The notes under the pieces are model-generated. The model was not told the DNA's origin. It ran no database searches and saw only the letters and a program-made list of their open reading frames with translations. A stretch of 64,000 nt of DNA from Armatimonadota bacterium (GTDB lineage Bacteria; Armatimonadota; Zipacnadia; Zipacnadales; UBA5352), in the NCBI GenBank assembly GCA_050942735.1, contig JBMNNW010000013.1, forward strand, positions 73-64,072, written 5' to 3'. Shown one piece after another: positions 7,777 to 47,411 of the stretch (the stretch's first letter is position 1; every line of letters starts with the position of its first letter). The translations under genes and the position numbers were made by a program.

Positions 7777-9762
7777 TCACTGCGCAGGGTCGACCGGCCG
7801 TGACGGAGGCGTCATCTGCGCCGCCGCGGGCGGGTCCACGCTGAACACATCGATCGGCTCGGCGAGGCCCCTCACCGGGATTCGACCGAGACTGCGGGGG
7901 GCGTAGTCGGGTGCAATCAGCTTGGCGGTGACGTCGCTCATCAGAATGGACGTGCCCAGTTCCTTGTTGGCGCTCTCCAGTCGCGACGCCACGCTCACCG
8001 TCTCGCCCATCACGGTGTACTCCAGCATTCTCTCCGAGCCGACGTCGCCTGCGACCAGTTCCCCGGTGTGCAGGCCGATGCGCACGATGATCGGCCACTC
8101 GTCAGGAGCCGCCGCGGCGCGCAGATGCGCGATCCGTTCCTGGATCTCCAGACTCGCGGCCACAGCGCGGGTTGCGTGATCATCGTGCGGCACCGGGTCG
8201 CCGAAAACCGCCATCACGCCGTCCCCGATGAACTTGTGCACCGTGCCACCGTGCGCGAGGATGACCTCCGTGACAACGCTTAGGTAGCGGTTGACCTGGT
8301 TCACTACCTCCTCCGGGGCAGACGTCGAGCAGAAGGTCGTGAACTCCTGCAGATCGGAGAAGAAGACGGTGCCGATGACCCTGCGCCCCGCGACCCTGGC
8401 AAGCTCCGGATCGGCCAGGATCACCCGCAGCACCTCGGGGGCCACGCGCATGGACCAGGCGCGCCGCAGCCGCCGCTCAGCATGCCACGAGGTGAGCTCC
8501 AGATACACTGTGTCAAGCACGAATGTCAGCGTCACTCCGAGCAGTAGCGGTACCAGCGGCAGCCACATCCGACGCGTCCACATCGCCTCGAAGGTCAGGA
8601 TCAGTGCCAGTGCCACCAGGGGCAGCCAGCCCAGAAGCAGGCCCCTGAGTGGGCGCAGCCAGCACACCAGCGCGCCCATGAGCATCGAAAGCACCGCCGT
8701 GAGCAGTATCGCCATCCAGACGGGGGCAGGCACGATCCAGGCGCTGCGCAGGATGGTATCCGTGGCGGCGGCGATGACCTCAACCCCCGGCATCGCCGCG
8801 ACCTTCTGGCTCGTCCCGGGGATGCCCCGAAGCGACACGGGTGTGGCGTGCAGGTCCTGCAATGAGCGCGCGGTGGCGCCAAGCAGCACGATCCTGTCCG
8901 CCACCAGCGCATGGTCGAACTCGCCGGAGAGCACACGGTAGTAGGGGATGCGCACAAAGCCCTGACCGACTGGGGCGCGGTAGTTGATCAGAAAGTCTTC
9001 GAGGGGCAGCGCCGGATGGTCCGAGCGCGCCGCCACCAGTATCCGGGCGGCCAGTTCGGCAGGGCCCACGCCCGCGCGCAGCGCCGCGAGGCACACCGCC
9101 ATCGAGGGCCAGACCGCGTCCTGATGGGTGACCGAGGTCAGGTAGCGCCGAACCGTGCCATCGAGGTCCGCGGGCAGGCTGACCGCGCCCAGCGCAAGGG
9201 ACGCCTCCTCGAACTCAGGCAACGGGAAGTTGGCGACAATCAACTCCCCCGCGGCGCCCGTCCCCGCCACCGCCTCATGCACCACCTCAAGAGCAAGCAC
9301 CACGTTGCCCGCGGCGCGAAGGCCCGCGACCAGGGCCTCATCGTCGGGCGACAGCGGTGGCGTCCAGAGGAACGGGTCCTCGCCGGGCGGACACTCGGGG
9401 TCGCCGGAGACGCCAGCGAGGATGATGTCCATGCCGATGACGCGGGCACCGGCGTCGCCGAGCCGCCGCAGCACGCGGGCGTGGAAGCGGCGTGGCCAAG
9501 GCCACATGCTCAGCTCAGGCTGCGAAAACGACTCCTCGTCGATGGTGACGAGGGTTATGTCGCGGCTCGGAACAGGGCCGGATTGCCCGTGATCCCCGGG
9601 GGCCCAGGCAAGGCGGTAGTCGTACAGACTAAGCTCAGCGCGGTACAGGACCTGGGAGAGCAGCCCTGCGGGGGTGCTCGGGTCACAGAGCCACGCCGCG
9701 AACAGGCCCGCCCCCAACCCGATCGCGATCCCGATGACGCGGAGGCCGTGCTGCCGGCGCAT
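7777..9762 (-). CDS. CHASE2 sensor domain / class III adenylate-guanylate cyclase
   Basis: ORF 7777..10020; internal start MRRQHGLRVIGIAIGLGAGLFAAWL (GGTGGAG 6 nt upstream) begins with TM helix, CHASE2-like periplasmic region, 3 TM helices, then cyclase motifs FFSDLQEFTTF...HKFIGDGVMAVFG...GLHTGELVAGDVGS...YTVMGETVSVASRLE. Confidence 0.8.
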   Translation of the reverse strand: MRRQHGLRVIGIAIGLGAGLFAAWLCDPSTPAGLLSQVLYRAELSLYDYRLAWAPGDHGQSGPVPSRDITLVTIDEESFSQPELSMWPWPRRFHARVLRRLGDAGARVIGMDIILAGVSGDPECPPGEDPFLWTPPLSPDDEALVAGLRAAGNVVLALEVVHEAVAGTGAAGELIVANFPLPEFEEASLALGAVSLPADLDGTVRRYLTSVTHQDAVWPSMAVCLAALRAGVGPAELAARILVAARSDHPALPLEDFLINYRAPVGQGFVRIPYYRVLSGEFDHALVADRIVLLGATARSLQDLHATPVSLRGIPGTSQKVAAMPGVEVIAAATDTILRSAWIVPAPVWMAILLTAVLSMLMGALVCWLRPLRGLLLGWLPLVALALILTFEAMWTRRMWLPLVPLLLGVTLTFVLDTVYLELTSWHAERRLRRAWSMRVAPEVLRVILADPELARVAGRRVIGTVFFSDLQEFTTFCSTSAPEEVVNQVNRYLSVVTEVILAHGGTVHKFIGDGVMAVFGDPVPHDDHATRAVAASLEIQERIAHLRAAAAPDEWPIIVRIGLHTGELVAGDVGSERMLEYTVMGETVSVASRLESANKELGTSILMSDVTAKLIAPDYAPRSLGRIPVRGLAEPIDVFSVDPPAAAQMTPPSRPVDPAQ

Positions 9763-10134
9763 AGCGACTCCACCAGTCACTTGAGATGCCCGCGGAAGGA
9801 TTTCGGCCGCCAGTGGCGCGAAACCTGCAAGTGGAGAGCCGAAGGTGTCCCACGCGGGCGGGACATCGGGGCCTCTGCGACCTGACCGGATACCGTCGCC
9901 CGGCTCTGACAAAATAAACTGAGCCCTGCAAAGGTAAAGTAGAAATGTCTGGTTCTGAGCAAACGCCCACCCACCCCAACTCCTCAGACAAGTCGGAGGC
10001 AGTCGCCGCTGTTTGGCCATCGTCGTGACGAGTCCTCGTCTATCAGGGGGAGTACGGTCATGGGGGACCGCCTACGCCGCATCGAAGCGGGGTATACTGC
10101 AGGCACACCGACGGTCTCAGTGAGGGATGGCATC

Positions 10135-10869
10135 ATGCGCATGCTACCGGGCGTCTGGGCTGTACTGCTGTGGGTGTCGGCAGCGATGGTCTGCGGTGCC
10201 GACGGGCCGGCCGATCGGGTCATGTTGTCGAGACAGGAGGCGAGTGCGCTGACGGCGGGCCTGTCGCCCTCGGCGCGCCGGAGTCTGGCGGGGACGATCA
10301 CGCCCCGGGAGCAGCTCACGGCGATTCAGACGCAGCCCGCGATGGCACGACAACTCCGGCGTCTGAGACTCAGCGGCTCAGGAGGCAAACCCGACGACCC
10401 GGCATGGATGACCGGCATCACGCTCACCCCGCTGGAGGCCACGTATCCGGCGGATGGTGACTACATGAACTTCAGCCTCGCGCTGACGACTCGGGCCGCG
10501 TATCTCAGCCAGGTGACGCCCCTGCCGACGGCGGCCCAGGAACCGCCGCTGCTGTGGCTGTATGTCCCGAGCAGCAACACTCCGTTGCTGTCGATCGAGG
10601 CGAAGTGGCCCATGCGCGGCGCCTACTTGATCACATTCGTCCTGAAGGACGTCTGGGCAGCCTCGGTGGCGAGACCGCGAGTCCATGTGAACGGCGTGAT
10701 GCAGCAGGTGTACGCCGACAGCGAGGTCGGCTGCGATCGCTGGACCGTCGTGTGCCTCGCTGAGGACGCTCAGAGTCTCTACCACACGATCACCGTCTAC
10801 CCGGCCGAGATCGGCTTCACACTGTGCTGCCTGTCGAAAGTGGTCGTCAGCAAGGTGTGGCTGGAGTAG
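10135..10869 (+). CDS. hypothetical secreted protein
   Basis: ORF 10060..10869; start MRMLPGVWAVLLWVSAAMVCGA (signal peptide) with GAGGGA 7 nt upstream; no recognisable domain. Confidence 0.5.
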   Translation: MRMLPGVWAVLLWVSAAMVCGADGPADRVMLSRQEASALTAGLSPSARRSLAGTITPREQLTAIQTQPAMARQLRRLRLSGSGGKPDDPAWMTGITLTPLEATYPADGDYMNFSLALTTRAAYLSQVTPLPTAAQEPPLLWLYVPSSNTPLLSIEAKWPMRGAYLITFVLKDVWAASVARPRVHVNGVMQQVYADSEVGCDRWTVVCLAEDAQSLYHTITVYPAEIGFTLCCLSKVVVSKVWLE

Positions 10870-11004
10870 AACTCCCCAACCGACAGGGATGGGGCCATCC
10901 GCCGGTGGCGAAAGCCAGTTCGACAGTCTGCTGCGGCCCACAGCGATCCGGCCGCGTGCAGGCGGGATGGCACGAGACAGGCTGTCTCACAATGTGGCGG
11001 AAGA

Positions 11005-11841
11005 ATGCCCGTGCCGCGCAGTCGGCGGGAGCATGGGAGGGCGCTCGATGGCTGGGTTCAGCTCGACCATCGGTGGTCGCAACCACGGTGGGGATCGCGG
11101 GGAGGGCGCCTCGCAGACGACGCCTGGGGCATGCTGCTGGAGCGAACCGGCAGCACCGTCAACCCGCACACCTACGTGGGCCGCGAGCGCTACTACCGCA
11201 TGCCCAACGCGGCGATGTACCACCTCGGCTTCCGCGACTACGCGCAGGGGGTGGGAAGGTTCATGACGGTGGATCCGGTGCGGGACGGCCTCAACTGGTT
11301 CGCGTACGTGAGGAACGGGTCGACAGCCATGGTTGATCCCTCCGGTGCGGCGCCGTGGTGGTGGACGTTCCTTGAGCAGAACCCGCCGACGCCGTCCACA
11401 CCGGATGGAACTTGCGTTGTAATCAACTGCGACAGATGGATGGACCGGATGGAGAAAAGGATCGGCCACGCGATGGTGGGCTCCGTCAACTGGTGTGTCG
11501 ATCAATTCGTCTCGGTCGACGACTGCAGACCGAGCTGTATGAGTCTGATGCGCTTCCTGAGAAGTCTGGGTGTAATGCGAGGAGAGGGGGAACCCCCCAA
11601 CGTAGTCTGGGTGGAGCCGTGGCCATCAGATCCGCTGGACCAGCATCCCATCTTTAAGACATGTCTCGCTGGGTGCTGGGGCGGCCGCAATGCGTTTGCA
11701 CTCGCATGCACTGTTATCGCGCCCATCGCGATATGGACCGCCTACGTGTTCTTGGGCATGATGTACGGGCTCTGTGTCCATACGTTCGGCCATGGCGACA
11801 ACCGCATCCGCTGGCCTGACGGAGGCGACAGAATCGGGTGA
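11005..11841 (+). CDS. orphan Rhs/YD-repeat C-terminal cassette 1: ~50 aa of Rhs repeat-associated core (..TVNPHTYVGRERYYRMPNAAMYHLGFRDYAQGVGRFMTVDPVRDGLNWFAYVRNGSTAMVDPSG) fused to a Cys/Trp-rich variable C-terminal domain with one predicted TM segment; lacks N-terminal Rhs body
   Basis: ORF 11005..11841; RYYxP...GRFxxxDP...DPxG motif typical of Rhs core / toxin junction; tail WWWTFLEQNPP...CVVINCDRWMDRMEK...LACTVIAPIAIWTAYVFLGMMYGLCVHTFGHG; no upstream YD repeats in any frame. Confidence 0.6.
   Translation: MPVPRSRREHGRALDGWVQLDHRWSQPRWGSRGGRLADDAWGMLLERTGSTVNPHTYVGRERYYRMPNAAMYHLGFRDYAQGVGRFMTVDPVRDGLNWFAYVRNGSTAMVDPSGAAPWWWTFLEQNPPTPSTPDGTCVVINCDRWMDRMEKRIGHAMVGSVNWCVDQFVSVDDCRPSCMSLMRFLRSLGVMRGEGEPPNVVWVEPWPSDPLDQHPIFKTCLAGCWGGRNAFALACTVIAPIAIWTAYVFLGMMYGLCVHTFGHGDNRIRWPDGGDRIG
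11118..11276 (+). repeat. direct repeat copy 1 (Rhs core-encoding ~155 nt, ~90 % identical to 12676..12832; 90-nt stretch 11161..11250 vs 12718..12807 nearly identical)
   Basis: aacccgcacacctacgt(g/c)ggccgcgagcgctactaccgcatgcccaacgcggcgatgtaccacctcggcttccgcgactacgcgcaggggg shared. Confidence 0.8.
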
Positions 11842-11942
11842 CGGGGCCAGAATCTCGTCGCTCTCATGCGCAGTCCGTGACGCCATCACGAATGGATTGC
11901 CACTTGTCAGCTCAGTTGCTTGTGCCATGGGAGGTTCGTGCA

Positions 11943-12374
11943 ATGCGCGTGCTCGTACGAACAGCAGAATTCCTGCTGTGGCTGGTCGTGGCTCACTTAT
12001 GTTGGTGGGTCCTGGTGTACTGGTTCCCCACCGCTGTCTTGGGATGGCGCGGTCCAACGTGGGCGATCGTGGCCTTCGCGGTCATCCTCATGCCGCTCCC
12101 AGTCGCTCTTTCCGCAGCCTTCGCGTACAGGCACGGGCGGCGGTCCTCGGCTTCGGCCAGGGCACTGGCCTTAGCTGTGATGCTCGCCACTTCTCTGGCA
12201 CTATCAGCAGTCGGGGCGATGCTCTCCTTTCGCCCGGCCGGAGAGCCACTGGATCGGGGCGACGTGGCGCAGGGTGTGATCATGGTAGTGGTGGTGGGAG
12301 CAGCGGCCTGGTTAGCCGCCGCTCTCGGCACGCAACATCAAACCGACAGGCGAAAAGCCAGCTCACGGGAGTAG
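11943..12374 (+). CDS. small 4-TM inner-membrane protein; candidate immunity protein for Rhs cassette 1
   Basis: ORF 11838..12374 overlaps cassette 1 stop (ATGA-type overlap at 11838); preferred start MRVLVRTAEFLLWLVVAHLCWWVLVYWF with GGGAGG 8 nt upstream; four hydrophobic helices; position immediately 3' of an Rhs-CT is the canonical immunity slot. Confidence 0.5.
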   Translation: MRVLVRTAEFLLWLVVAHLCWWVLVYWFPTAVLGWRGPTWAIVAFAVILMPLPVALSAAFAYRHGRRSSASARALALAVMLATSLALSAVGAMLSFRPAGEPLDRGDVAQGVIMVVVVGAAAWLAAALGTQHQTDRRKASSRE

Positions 12375-12441
12375 GTGCGTTGCGATCGACTTCGCGGCGG
12401 GCGGGAATAGCTACTACGACTACGATGCTGACTCGAAGCGC

Positions 12442-13422
12442 GTGAGCCAGCGGACGGCGGATGGCTACCGGAAGTTCGTCTACCAGGGGCCGGATATGCT
12501 GGCGCTGCAGATGGAGCGGGACGAGAGCGAGGCGACGGTGGCGCATTACACCATGGGCGCGGGGCTGGAGGCAATGCGCAGGGACAGCGCGAGCAGCTTC
12601 TATCACTACAACCACCTCGGAACCACACTCGCCCTGACCGGGGCGGATGAGGCGGTCACGGACACCTACCGCCACGACGCGTGGGGAGTGCTGCTGGAGA
12701 GCACGGGAAGCACGGTCAACCCGCACACCTACGTCGGCCGCGAGCGCTACTACCGCATGCCCAACGCGGCGATGTACCACCTCGGCTTCCGCGACTACGC
12801 GCAGGGGTTGGGGAGGTTTGTGACGGTGGATGCCCCGACACGTCGACCACCTGTCCGCGGCACCGGCGGCGGCGGGGATGCGCCCGCTCCCCCTCCCGTG
12901 CCCACTCATGACGGCCGATCCCTGTATGAGTGGATCCAGTTGCTCGATGCGCCTGAGCTTGACACCCGGATCGCGGCGGCGAACGCTCTCGGCGCTATGG
13001 GCGAGGACGCCGTGCCCGCCATTGGGCCGCTGAACCGCGCGCGCCTGCATGACGCGCACGAATCCACGCAACGGCAGGCGGCGCTTGCGCTGTGCAAGCT
13101 GCTCACCGGCGCGAACCGCGCGGCCACAACGATCCGGCAGGTTGTCTCCGGCCAGCCGCAGACCATTCATGTCGACTCCACGGCAGGTTTTGGTGACGGC
13201 GACGAGTACTGGTATCATGATGTGCAGCCAGGCGACGAGGTCGTAGTCCACGCCCGAGCCAGCCTGTCACGCACTGCAGCCGACACGTATCGCGTCGAGG
13301 CCAACGCCGCGGTGACCATCGAAGCACAGGGCACGGTTTTCTGGCGCATCGGCGACGGCGAATGGCGCGCGGCCCAGGGCGCCGTTCCGGCGGACGCTGA
13401 GGTCCGGATCGGCATCCGGTAA
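12442..13422 (+). CDS. orphan Rhs/YD-repeat C-terminal cassette 2: YD repeats + Rhs core, then non-canonical C-terminal region with HEAT/PBS-lyase-like repeats and a beta-rich tail; no obvious start codon (frame open from 12316; GTG at 12442)
   Basis: Frame contains ...NSYYDYDADSKRVSQRTADGYRKFVYQGPDMLAL...SFYHYNHLGTTLALTG...TYRHDAWGVLLESTGSTVNPHTYVGRERYYRMPNAAMYHLGFRDYAQGLGRFVTVD then LDTRIAAANALGAMGEDAVPAIGPL..QRQAALALCKLL. Confidence 0.55.
   Translation: MSQRTADGYRKFVYQGPDMLALQMERDESEATVAHYTMGAGLEAMRRDSASSFYHYNHLGTTLALTGADEAVTDTYRHDAWGVLLESTGSTVNPHTYVGRERYYRMPNAAMYHLGFRDYAQGLGRFVTVDAPTRRPPVRGTGGGGDAPAPPPVPTHDGRSLYEWIQLLDAPELDTRIAAANALGAMGEDAVPAIGPLNRARLHDAHESTQRQAALALCKLLTGANRAATTIRQVVSGQPQTIHVDSTAGFGDGDEYWYHDVQPGDEVVVHARASLSRTAADTYRVEANAAVTIEAQGTVFWRIGDGEWRAAQGAVPADAEVRIGIR
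12676..12832 (+). repeat. direct repeat copy 2 (Rhs core-encoding)
   Basis: see copy 1. Confidence 0.8.
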
Positions 13423-13563
13423 GGCCGACAGAGAGGGCGGCGCGGCGTGAGTGCCTGCAATCGGGTGGATGCTGTAGCCCTGCGCTTGACGCGGCGAGGT
13501 CGGTCGCGAGGCATGAGCCTCAGTTGCCCTCATCTGATTGATCGATGACAGGAGTGGATACTG

Positions 13564-15510
13564 ATGCGGACACCGACACCGGTTGAGGTCATGCGCGTGA
13601 TCGCGATCGCAGCGGTCTTTGCAGCTATCCCGGGGGCTCGAAGCGCCACAGCCCAGACCCACGCTCTCGGGAACGGCTTTCACGATCATGGGCCCTTCGC
13701 GGATGTGCTGGTAAGCCGTGGCCTCGTCAGCACAAGCGACGGAGACGGCAATGACGTTGTCGTCGCCCTCGTGCGCGCCAGCGGGATCGCTGAGGCGGTG
13801 GTGATCGATGCCCGGACAGGTGAGGTGGAGCAGATACCGTTTCCCGGTCGCGCGGACTGGCCGTTCGCCTCGATCCTGTCGAGCCGCGGCCTCTACTACA
13901 CCTACACCGGCGGCCACTTCATGGAGTTTGACCCGAAGGTGCGCGACTTCACGTTCGTGGAGCAGGGTCCGAATCGCTGCTCCATGAGCATGACCGAGGA
14001 CGATGACGGGGTGATCTGGTCCGCGCTCTACCCCGACGCCCATGTGCTCAGCTTCAATCCCGAGACGCGCGAGCTTCGGAACTACGGGGCCGTGAGCGAG
14101 CACCCGTCGCTTCAGTATCCCCGCTCCATCGCAGCCGACGATCAGGGCTGGGTCTACATCCGAGTTGCCGGAACGGTTGGGCAGATCTTCATGCTCAACC
14201 CTGAGACCGCCGAGGTCAGGACCGCGATCCCCGAAGACAAGGTCGTTGGTGGGGGCGGTCTGCACGTCTACCGTGACCTGAATGGGAAGGTGTACGGGCA
14301 GCTCGAGTATGGAGATCGGGGGAGGACGTGGTTCGAGCTGTACGATGGCGAGGCGGCCATAATTGACGCGCCACCGGAGCCGAACCGCAAGCTGATCATC
14401 GCGGGCGGTCAGGGCCTGCGACACTACGATCTGCCCGGCGGCGAGCGCATCACCAACCTCGACCTCGTCGAGGGTGTGATGGCCATCGAGAATCCGGAGA
14501 CCGGCGCGACGCGCGAGGTGAGGTTCGAGCTGGTCGGCGGCGGCTCCAGCCTGATGCAACTGGCGGTGGCTCAGAACGGCACAATCTCCGGCGGGACCTA
14601 TCATCCCAAGCGCGTCTTCAGCTACGACCCGCGAACCGACACATGGGATCGTCGCGAGGGCTACGGGCAGTGGAATACGGTCGTGACCACCGAGGACCGC
14701 TTCTACATAGCCAGCTACACCGAGGGCGTTCTGCTCGAGTGGGATCCCACGCGCGAGTGGGTGCCTACCGAGATCGACAACCCCGACAGCAACCCGCGCT
14801 ACCTTGAGCAGACCGTCGGCCAGCCTCACGTGGGCAGGCCCTACGCGATGGTGGCGCACCCCGACGGGCGACACATCATCTACGGCGGCACCCCGCACTA
14901 CCACCACACCGGGGGCGGCCTTGTGATCTACGACATCGAAACCGAGACGGCTGAGATCATCAGCCACGAGGACCTCGTCCCTCTGCACTCCCATTCCAGC
15001 CTCGTGACCCTCCCTGACGGCAGGATCGTCGGCGCGACGTCCATCGAGCCGGCGATGGGAGGTGTGCCTATGGCTGAGGTGGCCGAACTGTACATCTTCG
15101 ACATGGACAGCAGGACGGTCGAGTGGCGAGCGGCGCTGATCGACGGTGTCGAGCGCTACAACGACATGATCGTCGCCCCGGACGGAAGGGTCTTCGGGAT
15201 CGCGGATCGGACGGTGCTGTTCGTATTCGATCCACAGGAGCGGGAGATCGTGCATACCGCCGATCTCTCCGAAGACTTCGGGCGCGCCGTCCACCAGCAG
15301 GGCCCGCGAATCTTCATCGAGGTGCCGGACGGTCGCATCTTCGTCCTCTTCCAGGAGGGCATCGCGCAGTTGAACCCGGAGACATACGAGATGACCATGA
15401 TGGCCGAGGCGCCGGTGAGTCTGGGGAACGGCGGGGCGTACTTCGAGGGTCGGCTCTACTTCGCCGGTGGCTCGAACTTGTTCTCGTGGGAGGTCCCGCC
15501 GGCGGAATGA
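13564..15510 (+). CDS. secreted beta-propeller-like protein, paralog A (unknown family)
   Basis: ORF 13564..15510; AGGAG 9 nt upstream; signal peptide MRTPTPVEVMRVIAIAAVFAAIPGARSATAQ; ~70 % aa identity to next gene; repeated blade-like segments (..DGVIWSALYPDAHVLSFNPETRE.., ..DGRHIIYGGTP.., ..DGRVFGIADRTVLFVFDPQERE..). Confidence 0.75.
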   Translation: MRTPTPVEVMRVIAIAAVFAAIPGARSATAQTHALGNGFHDHGPFADVLVSRGLVSTSDGDGNDVVVALVRASGIAEAVVIDARTGEVEQIPFPGRADWPFASILSSRGLYYTYTGGHFMEFDPKVRDFTFVEQGPNRCSMSMTEDDDGVIWSALYPDAHVLSFNPETRELRNYGAVSEHPSLQYPRSIAADDQGWVYIRVAGTVGQIFMLNPETAEVRTAIPEDKVVGGGGLHVYRDLNGKVYGQLEYGDRGRTWFELYDGEAAIIDAPPEPNRKLIIAGGQGLRHYDLPGGERITNLDLVEGVMAIENPETGATREVRFELVGGGSSLMQLAVAQNGTISGGTYHPKRVFSYDPRTDTWDRREGYGQWNTVVTTEDRFYIASYTEGVLLEWDPTREWVPTEIDNPDSNPRYLEQTVGQPHVGRPYAMVAHPDGRHIIYGGTPHYHHTGGGLVIYDIETETAEIISHEDLVPLHSHSSLVTLPDGRIVGATSIEPAMGGVPMAEVAELYIFDMDSRTVEWRAALIDGVERYNDMIVAPDGRVFGIADRTVLFVFDPQEREIVHTADLSEDFGRAVHQQGPRIFIEVPDGRIFVLFQEGIAQLNPETYEMTMMAEAPVSLGNGGAYFEGRLYFAGGSNLFSWEVPPAE

Positions 15511-15794
15511 GCGCATCCGCGTGCTGGCTGTGATAATACGCGGCAGGCGGTTCGAGATACCCGGAGAAGCAGGTCAAACGTATCCGGCAGCACATCTGTC
15601 AGGAGTAGCATTCATGGATTCCGTGCAACCTGGACGCAGCGGCTGTCGCGTTTCAATCTACTGGACGCTTGGATCCGACGCGTGACATGCGACACGGTCA
15701 ATGGAGGTCACCAGGCCCGCTCGTGCTCATACCGAGCGTGGGCGGGCCTGAACTGCTTCCGGTAGCAGGCCGTGACCGACGGGAGATGATGGAG

Positions 15795-17750
15795 ATGGGC
15801 CCATTGACGCTGACGCGGGTGAAAGAACTGAAGGTGATTGCGATCATGATGGTGCTGGTCGCAGCCCCATGCGGCCAGAGCGCGTCCGCGCAAAGCGTTG
15901 ATCTCGGCGGCGGCTTCATTGACCACGGGCCCTTCGCCGACGTGACCGTCAGCCGGGGCACGGTCTGTACGGTCGATGGCGAGGGCAATGACGTCGTTCT
16001 TGTGTGGCTGTTCGACAACCGCTACGCCTACGCGCTGGCGGTGATCGACGCGCAGACCGGAGAGATCGAGGAGATCCCCCGGCCCATCGAGCGGGACTGC
16101 CCGTTCGCCTCGATACTGGCCAGCAACGGGCGATACTACACCTACATGGGCGGGCACTTCATCGAGTTCGATCCGCTGCAACGCGAGTTCACATTCGTGC
16201 AGGAGGGTCCCTCGCGCGCCGCAATGAGCATGACCGAGGATGACAACGGCGTGATCTGGGCGGGAATCTACCCCAACGCCGACGTGGTCAGCTACGATCC
16301 CGCCACGGGCGAGTTCCGGCACTACGGTGAGATCAACCAGCATCCCGCGCTGCAGTATCCCCGCTCCATGGCGGCCGATGACGAGGGCTGGGTGTACATC
16401 GCGATCGGCATGGCGGTCGGGCAGATTTTCATCCTCAATGCGGATACCGGCGAGGTCGCCACCGTCGTCCCGGAAACCGACGTGGTCGGAGAGGGCGGCG
16501 TGTCGGTCTTCCGCGGGGTGGATGGGAAGGTCTACGGCTACGCGCCGGTCGGTGATGAGGGCCGGCAGTGGTTCGAGCTTCACGGCGGGGAGGCGACGCC
16601 GATCGACGACAGCCCGGGCGTGGCCCGCAAGCAGATCATCGCCGGCAGCCAGGGCCTGCGCCACTACGATCTGCCGGGCGGTGAGCGGGTCCGCGAACTC
16701 GACCTCGTGGAGGGCCGGCTGGTGATCGAGAACCCCGAGACCGGCGACGTGCGCGAGCTTGAGTTTGAGATCAGCGGCGGCGGCGCCTCGAATATGGGCC
16801 TGACGGTCGCCCACGACGGCACGATCGCCGGTGGCACCTATCATCCGAAGCGCTTCTTCAGCTACAATCCGCGAACCGACGAGTGGATTCGCCGTGACTG
16901 TTACGGCCAGTGGAATGTGGTGGCCACGACCGAGGACCGCTTCTACATCGCAAGCTACACCGAGGGCGTGCTTCTGGAGTGGGATCCGCTGAGCGAGTGG
17001 GTCCCGACCGAGCGCGACAACCCCGACAGCAATCCGCGCTACCTGGCGCAGACATACGGACACCCGGACGTGGGGCGACCCTACGCGATGATCGCGCATC
17101 CCGACGGACGCCACATCATCTATGGCGGCACCCCCGGCTACGGCTACACCGGCGGCGGGCTGGTGTTCTACGACATCGAGACCGAAAAGGCTGAGATTAT
17201 CGACCATGAGCAGCTGATCCGCTGGCACTCACAGGCGAGCCTGGTGGCGCTGCCCGACGGCTCGATCCTCGGCGGGACCACCACAGCGCCGGGGATGGGA
17301 GGGACGCCGCGAGCCGAGGTAGCGGAGTTGTACATCCTCGACATGGAGACGAGGCAGGTGCAGTGGCACGGCGCTCCCATCGAGGGTGCGCAGCGGTACA
17401 ATGACCTGATCGTTGGCCCCGACGGCCTGGTCTTCGGCATCATAGATCGCAACCGGTTCTTCGTCTTCGATCCCGAGACCCGGGAGATCGTGCATCTCGC
17501 GGAGACCCCCGAGGAGTTCGGCCCCTCGGTGCACCAGCAGGGGCCGCGCATATTCATCGAGGTGCCTGACGGGCGCATCTTCGCGCTCTTCACCGGGGGG
17601 ATCGTGCTGGTGAACCCGGAGACCTATGAACTGACGATGGTGGCCGAGGCGCCGCGTGGGCTCGGTAACGGCGGTGCGTACCTCGACGGGCGATTGTACT
17701 TCGCCGGCGGCGTCAACCTGCTTTCGTGGCCGGTGCCGCCCGCGGAGTGA
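15795..17750 (+). CDS. secreted beta-propeller-like protein, paralog B
   Basis: ORF 15669..17750; start MGPLTLTRVKELKVIAIMMVLVAAPCGQSASAQS with GGGAG 9 nt upstream; collinear with paralog A. Confidence 0.75.
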   Translation: MGPLTLTRVKELKVIAIMMVLVAAPCGQSASAQSVDLGGGFIDHGPFADVTVSRGTVCTVDGEGNDVVLVWLFDNRYAYALAVIDAQTGEIEEIPRPIERDCPFASILASNGRYYTYMGGHFIEFDPLQREFTFVQEGPSRAAMSMTEDDNGVIWAGIYPNADVVSYDPATGEFRHYGEINQHPALQYPRSMAADDEGWVYIAIGMAVGQIFILNADTGEVATVVPETDVVGEGGVSVFRGVDGKVYGYAPVGDEGRQWFELHGGEATPIDDSPGVARKQIIAGSQGLRHYDLPGGERVRELDLVEGRLVIENPETGDVRELEFEISGGGASNMGLTVAHDGTIAGGTYHPKRFFSYNPRTDEWIRRDCYGQWNVVATTEDRFYIASYTEGVLLEWDPLSEWVPTERDNPDSNPRYLAQTYGHPDVGRPYAMIAHPDGRHIIYGGTPGYGYTGGGLVFYDIETEKAEIIDHEQLIRWHSQASLVALPDGSILGGTTTAPGMGGTPRAEVAELYILDMETRQVQWHGAPIEGAQRYNDLIVGPDGLVFGIIDRNRFFVFDPETREIVHLAETPEEFGPSVHQQGPRIFIEVPDGRIFALFTGGIVLVNPETYELTMVAEAPRGLGNGGAYLDGRLYFAGGVNLLSWPVPPAE

Positions 17751-17796: not shown

Positions 17797-20151
17797 GTGA
17801 AATCCGTGGGAGCAGTGCTGATGATCACCGTGCTGACGGGATGTCTGCTGATGGCGGCCCCGGTCGCGCTCGCGGCGGAGTACTACCTCTCACCGGACGG
17901 CGACGACGACTCCGCGGGTGACCGTGAGAACCCTTGGCAGAGCATCGCGAAGGCGAATGAGGCCCTTGAGGTCGGGGACACGGCGACCTTTCTTCCAGGC
18001 GACTACATCGGCACCATCGCTCCGGAAAGGAGCGGGACTGCCGACGAGCCGATCACATTCCGTTCGTCGGAGCCATGGGCGGCGCGTCTCGTGGCCGATG
18101 GCGTGCCCATGCTGATTCAGCTCAACGGCCACGAGCACGTCGTCATCGAGGGCTTCGAGCTTGATGCCCTGCTGACGGGCGGCTGGTTCGCCATCGATGA
18201 CAGCCACCATCTGACCATCCGCGGCTGCAACATGCGCCGCGCCCGGCCGATGCACTTCATCCGCAACTGCACGCATGTGAAGCTGCTGGACAATGTGTTC
18301 AGCAAGGACACTGTGACCGGGGACACGCTCCGGCCGCTCAACTGCTCGCAGATGCTGATCGAGGGCAACTCGTTCACCCGCGTCGGTCACTGCCCGCTCG
18401 TGCTGCAGGAGATGGAGGACAGTGTCATTCGCGGCAATGTCTTCAGGGCCGAGTGGGGGCGCAACTACACCTTCTGGGCCTCGGGACGGCTGCTCATCGA
18501 GGGGAATATCATCACCCGGGCACGGGACAGCGCCTGGTCGGCCGACCCGGTCGCGAAGAACCTGTATGATGAGAGCATCTTCCGGTTCAACCGCGTCTTC
18601 GACAACGCCGGCATGCCGATGAGCACCAGCAGCTACATCTGGACCGGCGTCAGCGCGACCGGCCTGTACCGCTATCCGTTCCGGTCGATGAACTCCCGCT
18701 TCTATCACAACACGTTCACCGAGAACCTCGGGCCCGCATGGTCGCTCGGCGGGGTTAACGTGAGCGCGAACATCTTCCAGAACAACATCTTCTACCGCAA
18801 CGACCCCTACGGAGGGAACGTACAACTCATCCGGAACGACGGGATCAGCAGCGACAATCAGTTCATCAGCAATCTCTTCCGCGGCACCGAGGCGGGCCAG
18901 ACGGTCGTGCGCTACCGCGGCGACTTCTGGACCGCGGAGCAGGCGAATGCGAATACTCGGATGATCGGTGAGTACTGGTCGGAGTTCCACGGCAACATCG
19001 ACGGCGATCCGGCGTTCGTGGACCCGGACAACCGCGACTACCGCCTCAGCCCCGAGAGCGCGGCCATCGACGCGGGCACCCCGCTCGCGGTGGCGATCGG
19101 CGCGGGAACCGGGACCGCGCTGCCCGTGACGGACGGGGTCCCGTTCTACGACGGCTTCGGCATCGAGGGCGAGGAGGGCGACTGGATCGCCATCGGCCGG
19201 GGCGACAACCTCGCGCAGATCGAGCGCGTGGAACTGCGCTACTACCGCCCGGCGCTACTGCACCTCGACCGCGAGGTGACGTGGACCGACGGGATGCCGG
19301 TGAGCCTGCCGTGGGCGGGCGAGGGGCCCGATCTCGGCGCCTACCAGCACGGGGTCCCCCATCCGACCGGTCTGATCGCCCTCGCAAGCCCTGCGGCGGC
19401 CGAGCCCGGCCAGCCCATCCAGTTCAGCCTCGATACCCTTGGCAAGGATGTCGCGTCGGTCACCTGGGACTTCGAGGACGGCACCCACTCCAGTGAGATT
19501 GCGCCGAGGCACAGTTACGCCGAGACCGGGCACTACGGCGTGACGGCGCGCGCGGTCTTTGCCGACGGGCAGCGCGGCGTGGCCGCGCTTTTCATCAACA
19601 TCCCGGAGCGGATCGATCCGGTCCTGCCGCTGGTTGAGATCGACTTTGAGGACGAGACCTATCAGACCGAATGGGGCTGGTACATGAAGTTCTACCGGCC
19701 GCACCAGACCGGGCAGGCACGTGTGGAGCGCCCCGAGGGCGAAGGCAAGTGCATGCACCTGTTCTTCGACGACAACAAGCGCAACTCCACGGCGGCGCAG
19801 ATTGCGCCCGGCGCGTGGGAGATCGACGTCTACCCGCTGGTGCGCTTCGCCTACCGCATCCCCGAGGGCGTTCCGATCGCGATCGAGGTCAACACCTTCG
19901 GCGGCCCCGACCAGCCCGCGGGCTTCACCCTCGGCGGCACCGACGCGCGCCCCGAGCGTGACAATGACCTCGGCACCTACAGGCTGATCGATGACGGACG
20001 GTGGCATGAGATCACGATCGATGTGCGCGCGGCGCGAGAGGCTTTTCCGGAACTGACCCACCTTCGCCAGTTCCTGCTGCGGACGGAGTGGCAGGAGGAT
20101 CAGGGACAGGAATTCTGGTTCGACGAGTTCGCGATCCTCCCGGAGGATTGA
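17797..20151 (+). CDS. secreted right-handed beta-helix (pectin-lyase-fold) protein with PKD domain and a novel ~85-aa C-terminal module
   Basis: ORF 17656..20151; GTG start VKSVGAVLMITVLTGCLLMAAPVALA (GGAGG 7 nt upstream; alt ATG 17821); beta-helix N-terminus YYLSPDGDDDSAGDRENPWQSIAKA..., PKD-like VASVTWDFEDGTHSSEIAPRHSYAETGHYGVTARAVFADGQRG; C-terminal GFTLGGTDARPERDNDLGTYRLIDDGRWHEITIDVRAAREAFPELTHLRQFLLRTEWQEDQGQEFWFDEFAILPED. Confidence 0.75.
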   Translation: MKSVGAVLMITVLTGCLLMAAPVALAAEYYLSPDGDDDSAGDRENPWQSIAKANEALEVGDTATFLPGDYIGTIAPERSGTADEPITFRSSEPWAARLVADGVPMLIQLNGHEHVVIEGFELDALLTGGWFAIDDSHHLTIRGCNMRRARPMHFIRNCTHVKLLDNVFSKDTVTGDTLRPLNCSQMLIEGNSFTRVGHCPLVLQEMEDSVIRGNVFRAEWGRNYTFWASGRLLIEGNIITRARDSAWSADPVAKNLYDESIFRFNRVFDNAGMPMSTSSYIWTGVSATGLYRYPFRSMNSRFYHNTFTENLGPAWSLGGVNVSANIFQNNIFYRNDPYGGNVQLIRNDGISSDNQFISNLFRGTEAGQTVVRYRGDFWTAEQANANTRMIGEYWSEFHGNIDGDPAFVDPDNRDYRLSPESAAIDAGTPLAVAIGAGTGTALPVTDGVPFYDGFGIEGEEGDWIAIGRGDNLAQIERVELRYYRPALLHLDREVTWTDGMPVSLPWAGEGPDLGAYQHGVPHPTGLIALASPAAAEPGQPIQFSLDTLGKDVASVTWDFEDGTHSSEIAPRHSYAETGHYGVTARAVFADGQRGVAALFINIPERIDPVLPLVEIDFEDETYQTEWGWYMKFYRPHQTGQARVERPEGEGKCMHLFFDDNKRNSTAAQIAPGAWEIDVYPLVRFAYRIPEGVPIAIEVNTFGGPDQPAGFTLGGTDARPERDNDLGTYRLIDDGRWHEITIDVRAAREAFPELTHLRQFLLRTEWQEDQGQEFWFDEFAILPED

Positions 20152-43174: not shown

Positions 43175-43401
43175 CTGCATGATTATGGCGGGCGCCGGTA
43201 TCGCCATCCACGGATCTCGAGCCTTACCGGCACCCGCTGGCGAGTGATCCGGACGATCGCGTGCAATCCGAACAGACCCGACGGACACTTCGCTCACGGA
43301 ACATGGAATCTCCTCGGGGAAAGCAGTGTGCAGAATGTCAGTTGCTGAAGCAACGTCTGCGCGAGCAACCGCACATGGACACAGGAAGCGGGTTGGTTTT
43401 G

Positions 43402-44796
43402 ATGCGAGGGGTACACAGACACAGCAACTTGATGCGATGGGCCACCGCAATGCTGGCGGTTTTCGTGGCACTGACAGTCGCGGCGGGCGCATGGGCACAG
43501 GAGGCGACGGAGCTTCCATCGCCGCTTACGCTCGAGGACGCCCTGCGCATCGCGCTGGAGGCGAACCCCAGGGTGGCCGCCGCGGAGGCACAACTGCGCG
43601 CCCGCGAGGCCGCGTATGACGGCCAGAAGGCACGCAGGCTGCCCACACTGTCGCTGGATATCAGCGGGTCGACAAGTAAGTCGCTCGATCGGACCACTAA
43701 CGTCGATGGCGTCTCCGTCCAGACGAGCGGGGGGACCACCGAGAACAGCGATATCGCAGCGACGCTGAGCTACACCTTCTACCAGTCCGGCCGTGGCGAG
43801 GCGATCGACGCCGCACGCGAGCAGACCCGCGCGAGCGAGGCGAGTCTGGTCAACGCGCAGCGCCAACTGCTCCAGCTCGTCGCGACCGTCTGGCACACGA
43901 TCCAGTCCGAGCAGGAGCTTGCCGGGGTAGCTGAGCAATCGGTGGACAATGCCGAGCGCCACCTCGAACTCGTTGATGCCCGAATCGCCGCCGGAACCGC
44001 GGCCGAGACGGACAGGCTGCCGGTCGAGGCCGACCTTGCCGCGGCTGAGTATGATCTCGTCAGCGCGACAAATGCGGTATGGCAGTCGATCGCCGAGTTG
44101 CGGGAATACCTCGCTCTGCCCCCGGATGTGCTGCCACACCTCGCGGGCGTGCCGGAGCTTGACATAGAGCGCGCTGACCTTGAGGCGTGGATCGACACTG
44201 CCCTGAGCGACCGCCCGGACCTGCAGGCCCAGCAGCGTTCGGTGCGCGTGGCCGCACTGAACGTGGACCAGGCGCAGATCAGCGCGGGCCTGAGCTTCAT
44301 CGCGCAGGGCCAGGCGGACTATGGCCGGCACACCGGCACGAACGGCGAGACCTGGGCGCTCACAGCGGGGGTGAGCTTCCCACTCTTCGACCGGCAGGCC
44401 CGGGCGGGTGTGGATGAGGCGAAGGCGAGCCTCGAAGCGAGCCGTCAGCAGCTTGCGGAGCTTGAGCTGAGCGTGGCGCGTGAGGTGTCGCAGGCCTGGT
44501 ACTCGCTGGCCGATGCGACCGAGCGCGTGACCTCTGCACAAGCCTCGTTGGCCTCCGCCCAGAGCAACCTGGACGCGGCCCGCGAGCGCTACGCGGCGGG
44601 CGTTGCGAACGTCATTGCAGTCACGGACGCGGAGACGACGTGGCGCCGCGCGGCCGGGCAACTCGTGCAGGCGCGCTGCGACCGCAACACCGCATACTAC
44701 CGGCTCCTCGCCGCCACCGGGCGGCTGTCGGTTGAGCCGGATCAGGCGGCGGCGACGGAGGCAACCCAGCAGACACCCCGGGAGGATTCGCAATGA
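43402..44796 (+). CDS. TolC-like outer-membrane efflux protein
   Basis: ORF 43261..44796; start near MRGVHRHSNLMRWATAMLAVFVALTVAAGAWAQE (start ambiguous 43402/43432); LTLEDALRIALEANPRVAAAEAQLRAREAAYDG and second repeat typical of OEP family. Confidence 0.75.
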   Translation: MRGVHRHSNLMRWATAMLAVFVALTVAAGAWAQEATELPSPLTLEDALRIALEANPRVAAAEAQLRAREAAYDGQKARRLPTLSLDISGSTSKSLDRTTNVDGVSVQTSGGTTENSDIAATLSYTFYQSGRGEAIDAAREQTRASEASLVNAQRQLLQLVATVWHTIQSEQELAGVAEQSVDNAERHLELVDARIAAGTAAETDRLPVEADLAAAEYDLVSATNAVWQSIAELREYLALPPDVLPHLAGVPELDIERADLEAWIDTALSDRPDLQAQQRSVRVAALNVDQAQISAGLSFIAQGQADYGRHTGTNGETWALTAGVSFPLFDRQARAGVDEAKASLEASRQQLAELELSVAREVSQAWYSLADATERVTSAQASLASAQSNLDAARERYAAGVANVIAVTDAETTWRRAAGQLVQARCDRNTAYYRLLAATGRLSVEPDQAAATEATQQTPREDSQ

Positions 44797-46643
44797 AGCG
44801 CTCGATAGTAATCGCTGTGGCAGTAGCAGTACTCATCGGAGGCGGGTGGTGGTACCGAAGGGCCGAGCCCCCGCAGCATTCGCAGGCCCGGACCGTCACC
44901 GTCGAGCGCGGGGATCTGCGGGTGACCGTGGAGGCCACGGGCCAACTCGCGCCACTCACCACTATCGAGGTCAAGTCGAAGACCGGCGGTGAGATCGCGA
45001 CGATGTTCGTTGAGGCCGGGGATTACGTGAAGAAGGGCGACATCATCGCGCAGATCGACCCGACCGATCTTCAGAGCGGAGTTGAGCAGGCCCGGGCGTC
45101 AGTGAACTCCGCCGCCGCGAAGGTAACGCAGGCTCAGCTCAACGCCGCCTCGGAGTCGGAGCAGACCCGGACCTCCGTGGCCGAGGCGCGGGCGTCGCTT
45201 GAATCCACGCAGGCGCGCCTGCGGCAGGCGGAGGCGCAACTGCAGCAGACGCGCGAGAACACCGAGCAGAACATCGCCCAGGCCGAGGCGCGTTTGCGCT
45301 CGGCACGAGCCAGCCTCGAGCAGGCCCGCGCGCAGGAGAAGGCTGAGCCGAGGACGCTGCAGGCCAACATCGCCCAGGCCGAGGCGAACCTCGAGAACGC
45401 CCGGCAGAAGCTGGTCGCGCTCGAGGCAGGCAACCGCCCTGAGGAGATCGCGCAGGCGAAGGCATCGGTCGCCGAGCGGCAGGCCACGGTCGAAAACGCG
45501 CAGGCCGAGCTGGCGCGCATGCAGCAGCTCAATGGGAGAGGTTTCGTCTCCGATCAGGAGCTTGACGATGCCCGGCGCGCCGTCCGCACCGCGCAGGCGC
45601 AGCTTGACTCGGCCCAGCAGGCGTACGCGCTGGCGCAGCAGGGCGCGCGCACCGAAGAGATCGCGCAGGCCCGCGCACAGGTGCGACAGGCCGAGGCGAG
45701 CCTCGAGGCGGCGCGCACCCAGCAGGTACAGGTGCATGTGACCGTGCAGCAGCGCGAGGCCGCGGAGGCGTCGGTGGCCGAGGCGGAGGCGGGCCTTGCG
45801 TCGGCGAAGAGTGGGCGCCGCGACATCGAGGTCCGCGAGGGCGAGGTGGATGCGGCGCGGCAGTCCGTCGAGCAGGTACGGGCCACGCTGGAGCGGGCAC
45901 AGGCCGGGTCACTGGGCGTGGCCGCACAGCGGCAGTCGGTGGTCTCCGCCCAGGCGGACCTCGACCGAGCGCAGGCCCAGCTTGATGATGTGGAGTACAA
46001 CTTCGAGAATACGACGGTGAATGCACCGCGGGACGGCGTGGTGCTGGAGAAGCACGTGGAGGAGGGCTCGATCCTCCCCGCCGGCACGGCGGCACTGGCA
46101 CAGGGCACCGCGATCGTCACGATTGCGGATATCACGGAGATGTACGTGATGGCGGATGTGGACGAGGTGGACATCTCCCGCGTGCAGGTCGGGCAGCAGG
46201 TCGAGATCGCGATTGAGACGATCGAGGACGCGACCCTGACCGGCAGTGTGGACAAGATCTACCCGCAAGGCACCTCCGAGGACAACGTGATCTACTTTCC
46301 GGTGCGGATCGTGGTCACGCAGAGCCATCCCGACCTGCGGCCGGGCATGACCGCCGACGTGTCGATCGTCACCGCGGAGAAGAGCGACATCCTGTTGGTG
46401 CCCGACACCGCGATCGATCACACCGGCGACACTGAGACGGTGCTGGTGGTCACGCAGGCCGATGAGCGGCCCGAAAGGCGCGAGGTCGAGATCGGCGTGA
46501 CCGACTACGAGCGGACGGAGATCATCAGCGGCGCGCGCGAGGGCGAGCGGCTGCTGCTGCCCGACGCCGTGTCCGGATCTGCGGCGGGTCCCGGCGGGGA
46601 GCGCGAGGCGGGGCCGCCACCCGGCCCGATGATGCGGGGATGA
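44793..46643 (+). CDS. HlyD/MacA-like periplasmic membrane-fusion protein with unusually long Ala/Gln/Glu-rich coiled coil
   Basis: Overlaps TolC stop (ATGA); N-terminal TM; biotinyl/lipoyl-like GQLAPLTTIEVKSKTGGEIATMFVEAGDYVKKGDIIAQID; ~330-aa coiled coil; beta-barrel domain C-terminus. Confidence 0.8.
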   Translation: MKRSIVIAVAVAVLIGGGWWYRRAEPPQHSQARTVTVERGDLRVTVEATGQLAPLTTIEVKSKTGGEIATMFVEAGDYVKKGDIIAQIDPTDLQSGVEQARASVNSAAAKVTQAQLNAASESEQTRTSVAEARASLESTQARLRQAEAQLQQTRENTEQNIAQAEARLRSARASLEQARAQEKAEPRTLQANIAQAEANLENARQKLVALEAGNRPEEIAQAKASVAERQATVENAQAELARMQQLNGRGFVSDQELDDARRAVRTAQAQLDSAQQAYALAQQGARTEEIAQARAQVRQAEASLEAARTQQVQVHVTVQQREAAEASVAEAEAGLASAKSGRRDIEVREGEVDAARQSVEQVRATLERAQAGSLGVAAQRQSVVSAQADLDRAQAQLDDVEYNFENTTVNAPRDGVVLEKHVEEGSILPAGTAALAQGTAIVTIADITEMYVMADVDEVDISRVQVGQQVEIAIETIEDATLTGSVDKIYPQGTSEDNVIYFPVRIVVTQSHPDLRPGMTADVSIVTAEKSDILLVPDTAIDHTGDTETVLVVTQADERPERREVEIGVTDYERTEIISGAREGERLLLPDAVSGSAAGPGGEREAGPPPGPMMRG

Positions 46644-46682
46644 CGAGCGCGCCACCACCATAAAGGGAGCGATCGAGCGATC

Positions 46683-47411
46683 ATGCTTATCGACATAGAT
46701 GACCTTCAGAAGACGTACACGATGGGCGCGGTGAAGGTCTACGCGCTGCGCGGCATCACGCTGGACGTGGAGGCGGGCGACTACCTTACGATCATGGGCC
46801 CGTCGGGCTCGGGCAAGTCGACGCTGATGAACCTGCTGGGCTGCCTCGACACTCCAACCGCGGGGACATACGTGCTTGGCGGGGAGGACGTCTCGACACT
46901 CAGTCCCGACAAGCTTGCGGATGTGCGCAGCCGTGAAATCGGCTTCGTCTTCCAGCAGTTCAACCTGCTGTCGAAGTCCACGGCTGCGATGAACGTGGAG
47001 CTTCCGCTGGTTTACGCGGGCGAGACCGACCGCCACGCGAAGGCCCTCACCGCCCTCGAGCGCGTCGGCCTGGGGGACAGGGCCGATCATCGGCCGAACG
47101 AGCTGTCCGGTGGCCAGCAGCAACGCGTGGCCATCGCGCGGGCGCTGGTGAACAACCCCTCGATCGTGATGGCAGATGAGCCGACGGGCAACCTGGATAC
47201 GGCAACCGGTGCGGAGATCCTCGATCTGTTCGATGAGCTGAACGCGGAGGGAATCACGATCCTGCTGGTCACCCACGACCCGGCCACCGCAGAGCGCTGC
47301 AGTCGCGTGGTTCGGCTGGTAGATGGCGAGATCGTAAGCGACACGCGCACCGATGAACACACAGTTGATGACGCGCTGGAGGTCGCCGCGGCCGGAGGTC
47401 AGGGAACATGA
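46683..47411 (+). CDS. ABC transporter ATP-binding protein (MacB/LolD-type)
   Basis: Walker [10 protein letters not shown], signature [15 protein letters not shown], Walker [13 protein letters not shown]. Confidence 0.9.

Follow-up and report, generated by a model that had tools for sequence, protein, structure and literature searches.

The window analysed here comprises 64 kb of the 64,448-bp NCBI/IMG contig of a metagenome-assembled genome (MAG) of an uncultured Armatimonadota bacterium. Between about 10870 and 13422, this window probably carries two displaced rhs 3' ends ('orphan' cassettes) that belong to a family of Rhs polymorphic toxins of the Armatimonadota, and no gene for the Rhs shell is within reach; the immunity gene of the first cassette would be expressed, its toxin would be silent and the second cassette would have decayed. 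We establish here the anatomy of the segment, the Rhs family membership of the core, the recurrence of the toxin/immunity linkage at another locus and the lack of a shell gene in the 64 kb. An orphan rhs-CT architecture without a complete rhs gene nearby had already been proposed in the initial annotation, and this proposal is supported by the core membership, the 5' truncation of the open reading frames (ORFs) and the arrays found in relatives. Judging from the sequence, the feature represents genuine orphan rhs-CT cassettes that are stranded between ordinary chromosomal genes.

Two plus-strand ORFs, ORF1 (11005-11841) and ORF2 (12442-13422), share an Rhs core as initially described, and the underlying repeat measures 158 nt. 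Copy 1 is located at 11117-11274 within ORF1 and copy 2 at 12674-12831 within ORF2, both on the plus strand. They differ by 13 mismatches (92% identity, 91.8% exactly; blastn E 1e-60), five of which are amino-acid-changing, in four codons, and eight silent. The longest identical run between them is 72 nt (11179-11250), and the peptide common to both copies is the Rhs-associated core. No further copy was detected by blastn in the 64-kb window, which contains two copies only; two cassettes make a minimal instance of the 'array' named at the outset. The sequences following the cores are unrelated to each other, in agreement with the different C-terminal extensions noted earlier. Across the family, the 158-nt core is 88-96% identical. 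Copy 1 is closest to the core that lies beside a homologous toxin in locus L021 (95.6%, versus 91.8% to copy 2), and the closest relative of copy 2 among the fetched loci is L019 (94.3%). Local duplication as the source of the two cores was rejected, since each copy resembles cores from other metagenomes more closely than it does its counterpart in the window. The two cores therefore belong to separate cassettes that carry a family-wide conserved recombination handle.

The Pfam families initially proposed as a check, PF03527 and PF05593, gave nothing significant, but the NCBIfam profile TIGR03696 (Rhs_assc_core) does match. ORF1 aligns with essentially the whole profile (positions 2-75 of 76) at 45.4 bits, above the cut-off of 32.5. 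ORF2 covers positions 2-50 only and remains under this cut-off with 21.2 bits, its core being truncated before the cleavage motif. The statement that both ORFs carry the Rhs core is thus correct for ORF1 and only partly so for ORF2. The core of ORF1 is complete (TVDP and VDPSG), and both aspartates, D90 and D111, as well as DPSG are retained. The self-cleavage motif of the core has been described as DP(I/L)GxxGGx5Yx8D(P/S)xG(L/W) (PMC11461821). In ORF1 it reads TVDP...VDPSGA, with Ala in place of L/W, and its first half, DPVRDGLN, departs from DP(I/L)GxxGG. Matches of the ORF1 core in the PDB are TcC and teneurin-like Rhs cores, the best of them being the TcC/Rhs core of YenC2 (residues 636-699), and the alignment with YenC2 passes through ...VDPSGAAPWWW versus ...TDPDGMAPLDW.

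ORF1 encodes 278 residues from an ATG: a leader of 38 residues, the core (residues 39-114) and a tip of 164 residues. The plus-strand junction and leader region at 10870-11116, between the stop of an unrelated 245-aa gene and cassette 1, shows no Rhs homology and holds the ATG at 11005. A tblastn search with the 372-aa Rhs cassette of a relative (M1 corresponds to the ATG at position 5908 of L006, the ORF being listed from 5590) gave no match before 11119. Homology to Rhs starts abruptly at the DAWG motif (11117). Whereas all other family members have a conserved ...FYHYNHLGT.LALT...TDTY.H sequence ahead of DAWG, the leader of ORF1 is unique and unlike anything known in the family. From 10900 to 11000, the GC content at third codon positions (GC3) favours no particular frame. 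The frame 5' of 11005 closes at a TAG (10867-10869), and it had been considered that this frame might continue upstream into a long, mis-called YD-repeat protein; this is not so. Neither a Shine-Dalgarno site before the ATG nor a sigma-70-like promoter upstream was found. The earlier view that a convincing start codon is lacking needs to be tempered, as an in-frame ATG is present, albeit not preceded by a Shine-Dalgarno site.

The tip that follows DPSG (CT1, plus strand, 11347-11838, residues 115-278 of ORF1) is a Cys-rich putative toxin domain of 164 aa. It contains a hydrophobic segment at ORF1 residues 230-258, the C-terminal helix, and its GC content (0.60 versus 0.66 for the window) suggests a foreign origin. 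The only relative of CT1 is protein P0002 of locus L021 (JGI 3300037504), with 47% identity and every Cys conserved; an exhaustive HMMER search with CT1 in 1.84 billion representative proteins returned only CT1 itself. An AlphaFold 2 model of ORF1, made from a two-sequence alignment, is of low confidence (predicted local distance difference test, pLDDT, 42.8). No toxin or immunity family match was obtained for cassette 1 in Pfam, NCBIfam, PADLOC or the PDB, and CT1 can be regarded as a putative, previously unclassified toxin tip.

A gene not mentioned in the initial annotation is located between ORF1 and ORF2. This candidate immunity gene (plus strand, 11943-12374) encodes a membrane protein of 143 residues with about four hydrophobic helices according to its hydropathy. 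A GGGAGG at 11929-11934, 8 nt 5' of the ATG, reads as a Shine-Dalgarno sequence, and GC3 supports the frame between 11920 and 12100. In L021, the toxin P0002 is likewise followed by an ORF for a membrane protein, of 142 residues, which is colinear end to end with the 143-aa protein (28% identity, E 7e-10 with composition adjustment). The next gene in L021 starts with MSQRNVFYYDQ..., the start of another Rhs 3' gene. The maintenance of this linkage in L021 is the main evidence on which CT1 and the 143-aa membrane protein are read as a candidate toxin/immunity pair. With its whole core, its Cys-rich tip and a predicted four-helix membrane protein that has its own Shine-Dalgarno sequence and ATG, cassette 1 is potentially a usable module. 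The membrane nature of the putative immunity protein, together with the hydrophobic C-terminal helix of the tip, may weakly hint at a membrane-directed toxin.

Cassette 2 is in a different state. Its Rhs fragment (plus strand, 12385-12831) starts at about 12385, some 10 nt past the stop of the candidate immunity gene, and comprises the last ~100 residues of the shell before the core and the first two thirds of the core, to RFVTVD. It aligns in tblastn with residues 214-372 of the 372-aa query (70% identity over 160 aa, E 2e-68). The distal third of the core, with the second aspartate and DPxG, is absent. Counted from its GTG start, ORF2 itself has 326 codons, in a frame that opens at 12316, and the sequence before it holds no Shine-Dalgarno site. 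After the Rhs fragment come a Pro/Gly-rich linker, HEAT-like repeats and a beta-rich C-terminal segment. The HEAT-like region matches Pfam HEAT_2 below cut-off (E 1.4e-4) and alphaRep/HEAT chains in the PDB (E 9e-8 to 6e-3), and the beta-rich end is seen in a low-confidence single-sequence model of CT2, the tip of this cassette (pLDDT 54.6). A word-index search of 5.8 billion proteins with the last 196 residues of ORF2 gave no homologue besides itself. The pattern of GC at the three codon positions is coding-like in the ORF2 frame, C-terminal part included. According to the ORF list, no immunity-sized ORF exists between ORF2 and the next gene at 13564. With a core that lacks the DPxG end and with no immunity gene, cassette 2 looks like a dead chimera. 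It is unlikely to be able to release a tip by the normal route, and we read ORF2 as a probable decayed chimera that arose by deletion or illegitimate recombination. Truncated-core chimeras resembling ORF2 seem to recur in the family, since the core of P0044 is also cut short. Apart from the contig of the window, the nearest core in NCBI is that of P0044, a protein of another MAG, of Ca. Zipacnadia (JALGST010000010.1; L026, 140-1441). P0044 consists of an Rhs fragment whose core is cut after GVGR, followed by an unrelated Arg-rich sequence. An ORF of 1349 aa overlaps the end of P0044.

The N-terminal Rhs shell is absent from both ORFs, as had been stated, and no shell gene is present in the 64 kb. 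When the window was searched by tblastn with the Rhs shell proteins of relatives, nothing besides the cassettes was detected, and no YD region of cage length was seen. There is no complete rhs gene within 10.8 kb upstream or 50 kb downstream of the cassettes. A second, longer assembly of the same region exists as a JGI contig of 164,801 bp (3300053716, Ga0534105_00839), and a family search found no other core-bearing protein on it. The Pfam profiles RHS_repeat and RHS detected nothing in ORF1 and gave non-significant values for the N-terminal side of ORF2 (E 1.4 and 0.34, respectively). As no YD/RHS-repeat cage region is found upstream of the core, ORF1 and ORF2 are best described as fragments, not as Rhs proteins. 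A degenerate core pattern was found in nine stretches of GTDB genomes and in nine of JGI metagenomes, none of them from the source organism or sample.

Among genomes, matches to this pattern are confined to MAGs of Armatimonadota type (Ca. Zipacnadia, Armatimonadia and one labelled WS1); a few metagenome contigs have it as well. The family protein matches (n=51) are all of 470 residues or fewer. Their core lies 14-330 residues behind the called start, and the tips beyond it vary, with lengths of 60-240 residues; several tips are Cys-rich and some carry HExxH. In related Armatimonadota MAGs, cassette arrays are located behind complete Rhs, and such arrays are common. In L001, five or more cassettes are spread over the two strands, and transposase and resolvase genes are found close by. 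L004 contains three, the second and third of which each keep less upstream Rhs sequence than the first. In L001 (ENA ERZ25039495 contig_58773; for instance 8157-9275 and 18021-19343), where the nearby mobile genes are an insertion sequence and the resolvase, two tips have a metalloprotease-like HExxH (HEAGH and HELAH).

L010 and L006 show the gene in its complete form, which in both consists of two ORFs. L010 (2328-7258, minus strand) encodes 1097 and 546 residues, the 1097-aa ORF having nine Pfam RHS_repeat stretches; L006 (785-4722, plus strand) encodes at least 771 and 540 residues. The TGA of the first ORF overlaps the ATG of the second (ATGA in L010, TGATG in L006), with GAGGAGG just upstream of the ATG. 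Together, the two products are colinear with single-chain Rhs cages: residues 454-831 of 8h8a correspond to the first ORF and 821-1037 to the second. The Rhs cage of these relatives thus appears to be encoded by two translationally coupled genes. The second gene of the pair bears the core and the tip, and in L006 it has been duplicated whole as an orphan (92.7% identity). The fragments in the window are far shorter than this second-gene unit of L006 and L010. The split point, M[AS][HQ]RN[TV]FYYDQ, is the same in different classes of the phylum, and such starts are also found in L016, L020 and L021 (1575-).

A close parallel is found in enterobacteria, in the orphan rhs-CT/rhsI modules of the Dickeya dadantii rhsC locus and of Yersinia and Salmonella (PMC3150448). 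Both sets of modules have 5'-truncated fragments with a conserved core and different tips, poor initiation signals for the fragments and core homology for recombination, and a small gene with its own start signals follows cassette 1. The modules of the window differ in that they are not directly 3' of a complete rhs gene, the host is a member of the Armatimonadota and not of the Proteobacteria, and the core is a different variant, NPHTYVGRERYYRMPNAAMYHLGFRDYAQG...DPSG. The second cassette differs in addition by the loss of the core end and by having no immunity gene. Poole et al. (2011, PMC3150448) described orphan rhs-CT/rhsI modules as analogous to orphan cdiA-CT/cdiI pairs, such as that of E. 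coli EC93, in which a fragment lacks an initiation codon and the immunity gene has a Shine-Dalgarno sequence and a start codon. The term 'C-terminal displacement' comes from Jackson et al. (2009), as cited in PMC11461821. The logic of these contact-dependent growth inhibition (CDI) modules is the same, with displaced tips and cognate immunity; the CDI fragments have no start codons and the CDI immunity genes are expressed (PMC3150448). The delivery protein is different in CDI (CdiA, with the VENN motif), and nothing CdiA-like is encoded in the window. Another parallel is with TcC of the ABC (Tc) toxins, such as YenC2 and TccC3, as the best structural matches of the ORF1 core are TcC cores ending in DPxG(M/L)AP, and the cage of relatives, encoded by two adjacent genes, is split in a similar way to TcB/TcC. 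However, neither genes nor domains of TcA or TcB were detected and the window has fragments only. In relatives, the upstream gene matches the central part of single-chain Rhs cages (7q97, 8h8a) and shows no specific alignment with TcB.

Regarding expression state, toxicity, protection and recombination, we infer the following from these data. The immunity gene would be translated on its own and could protect the cell from matching toxin delivered by neighbours. The toxin part would be silent or nearly so because it has no cage, no delivery domain and no ribosome-binding site. It could be reactivated only via homologous recombination of the conserved core with a complete rhs gene, at the 3' gene. 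Cassette 2 would be a remnant whose core stops short of the second aspartate and of the cleavage site and is fused in frame to an unrelated HEAT-like and beta-rich sequence. The cassettes had been thought to act as a reservoir of swappable toxin tips. Such a role is plausible for cassette 1, which has an intact core end, a conserved tip and an immunity gene, but not for cassette 2, and the reservoir function itself is deduced and not observed.

Several points weigh against this interpretation. No complete rhs gene of the source organism was found in the sequence covered (the window, the 164.8-kb contig and the core-pattern matches), which leaves the recombination partner needed by a reservoir hypothetical; the principal gene may lie elsewhere in the genome or be lost. 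Both IMG and NCBI annotate ORF1, with its in-frame ATG, as a gene, and some stand-alone expression is possible. The putative tip has no family match and its models are of low confidence, and the proposed immunity role is based on one conserved neighbour pair and on analogy. Finally, cassette 2 may not be dead, given the coding-like GC3 of the C-terminal part of ORF2 and its open frame of 196 codons. Part of these observations could also be accounted for if cassette 1 were a stand-alone expressed toxin-immunity pair, translated from the ATG at 11005 or from the internal Met chosen by NCBI and functioning like a toxin-antitoxin module without an Rhs cage. The frame of ORF1, called as a gene in both annotations, is intact from the in-frame ATG through the conserved tip, and a precedent exists in that Salmonella RHS elements, an orphan included, are described in PMC7043789 as functioning as type II toxin-antitoxin modules. 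We nevertheless consider this unlikely: neither a Shine-Dalgarno nor a promoter-like site is located upstream, the 38-aa leader is not conserved in the single relative, ORF1 keeps both aspartates and the DPSG of the core self-cleavage motif, which depends on a folded cage, and no signal peptide is present although the Cys-rich tip suggests an extracytoplasmic fold. A further reading, in which the stranded ORF1 and its membrane partner form an independently expressed, cage-free pair of a new family with a Cys-rich, membrane-directed toxin, is very unlikely in our view. It deserves mention as duplication and exchange in relatives concern the 3' gene, which has its own Shine-Dalgarno sequence and ATG, so that the stranded ORF1 and its partner might not be silent. 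In more than 5.8 billion proteins, this candidate new toxin family is known from two members.

At the other extreme, the whole segment might be a non-functional fossil, the principal rhs gene having been deleted and both cassettes and the membrane-protein gene being decaying pseudogenes. The lack of a shell gene in 64 kb, and apparently on the whole 164.8-kb contig, would fit, as would the clear degeneration of cassette 2 and the existence of truncated-core chimeras in relatives, P0044 among them. Yet the tip of ORF1 retains an open frame and all the conserved Cys, and the immunity ORF retains its start, its Shine-Dalgarno sequence and its full length compared with the homologue. In addition, two population samples differ here by one single-nucleotide polymorphism and by no disrupting change, which for such a short interval is weak evidence. 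We therefore judge complete decay to be improbable. As for the assembly, a core that is 88-96% identical across organisms could have falsely joined contigs of different Rhs loci or strains; MAG assemblies are often interrupted or wrongly joined at such repeats, and a large part of the family is found on short contigs. Such an artefact is extremely unlikely here, given that the gene order and the junctions are identical in the 64,448-bp and 164,801-bp contigs, which share 99.84% identity across 20.8 kb and have a single substitution between them in the cassette region, and that both flanks consist of ordinary single-copy genes.

With two stranded cassettes as the preferred interpretation, the orphan-cassette architecture of Rhs toxins is extended to the Armatimonadota, an under-studied phylum; a full-text search covering 8 million papers returned none that links it to Rhs. 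A previously unclassified pair of putative toxin tip and membrane immunity protein is now available for experiment. The understanding of Rhs systems as such is unchanged, as displaced rhs-CT/immunity modules and their decay are already well documented. The split two-gene Rhs cage of the relatives could be a more unusual lead than the window itself.

One substitution, 11213 C/A, separates the two assemblies in the cassette region, so that the ORF1 core has either Ala70 or Glu70; the family shows both residues at this position (NAAMY and NAEMY). The NCBI proteins of the locus are MGI5817294-96 (locus tags ACOX9R_04275 and ACOX9R_04285). ORF1 is labelled 'RHS repeat-associated protein' in IMG and 'RHS repeat domain-containing protein' in NCBI, where an internal Met start leaves 236 residues, and ORF2 is labelled 'hypothetical'. 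Outside the cassettes, the 164.8-kb version (L002) has single G/C insertions relative to the window at 6332 (GT), 6745, 6947, 7721, 14480 and 14686. They break ORFs that are intact in the window, such as the 648-aa ORF at 13564-15510, which becomes 382 + 249 aa, and probably stem from mistakes in the sequencing or assembly of one version or the other.

The genes upstream of the cassettes are unrelated to Rhs, in accordance with what was first reported. The adjacent one (10060-10869) encodes a secreted protein whose homologues are all complete at ~245 residues and have no Rhs linkage; a CHASE2-cyclase, a FecR-domain protein and an Ig-like-domain protein are encoded further upstream. In view of the completeness of these homologues, we also rejected the idea that the cassettes interrupt a native gene of which the upstream ORF and CT2 would be the two halves. 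A comparison with empty sites by means of the same homologues was uninformative, as synteny is not conserved. No mobile-element gene adjoins the cassettes, a tRNA search and Rfam gave no match, and promoter and terminator scans detected nothing. Further downstream of the cassettes are genes for a beta-helix/PKD protein, glycan-active enzymes, a histidine kinase and an OEP-HlyD-MacB efflux set. The latter consists of consecutive genes for OEP, an HlyD-type adaptor and a MacB/FtsX permease (43261-48616), which would form a tripartite efflux or secretion set and implies a diderm envelope; no link between this set and the cassettes was found. Directly 3' of the cassettes, 13564-15510 and 15669-17750 are tandem paralogues (67% identity over 647 aa) encoding secreted, propeller-like proteins with weak matches to DUF5074, Kelch and SGL.

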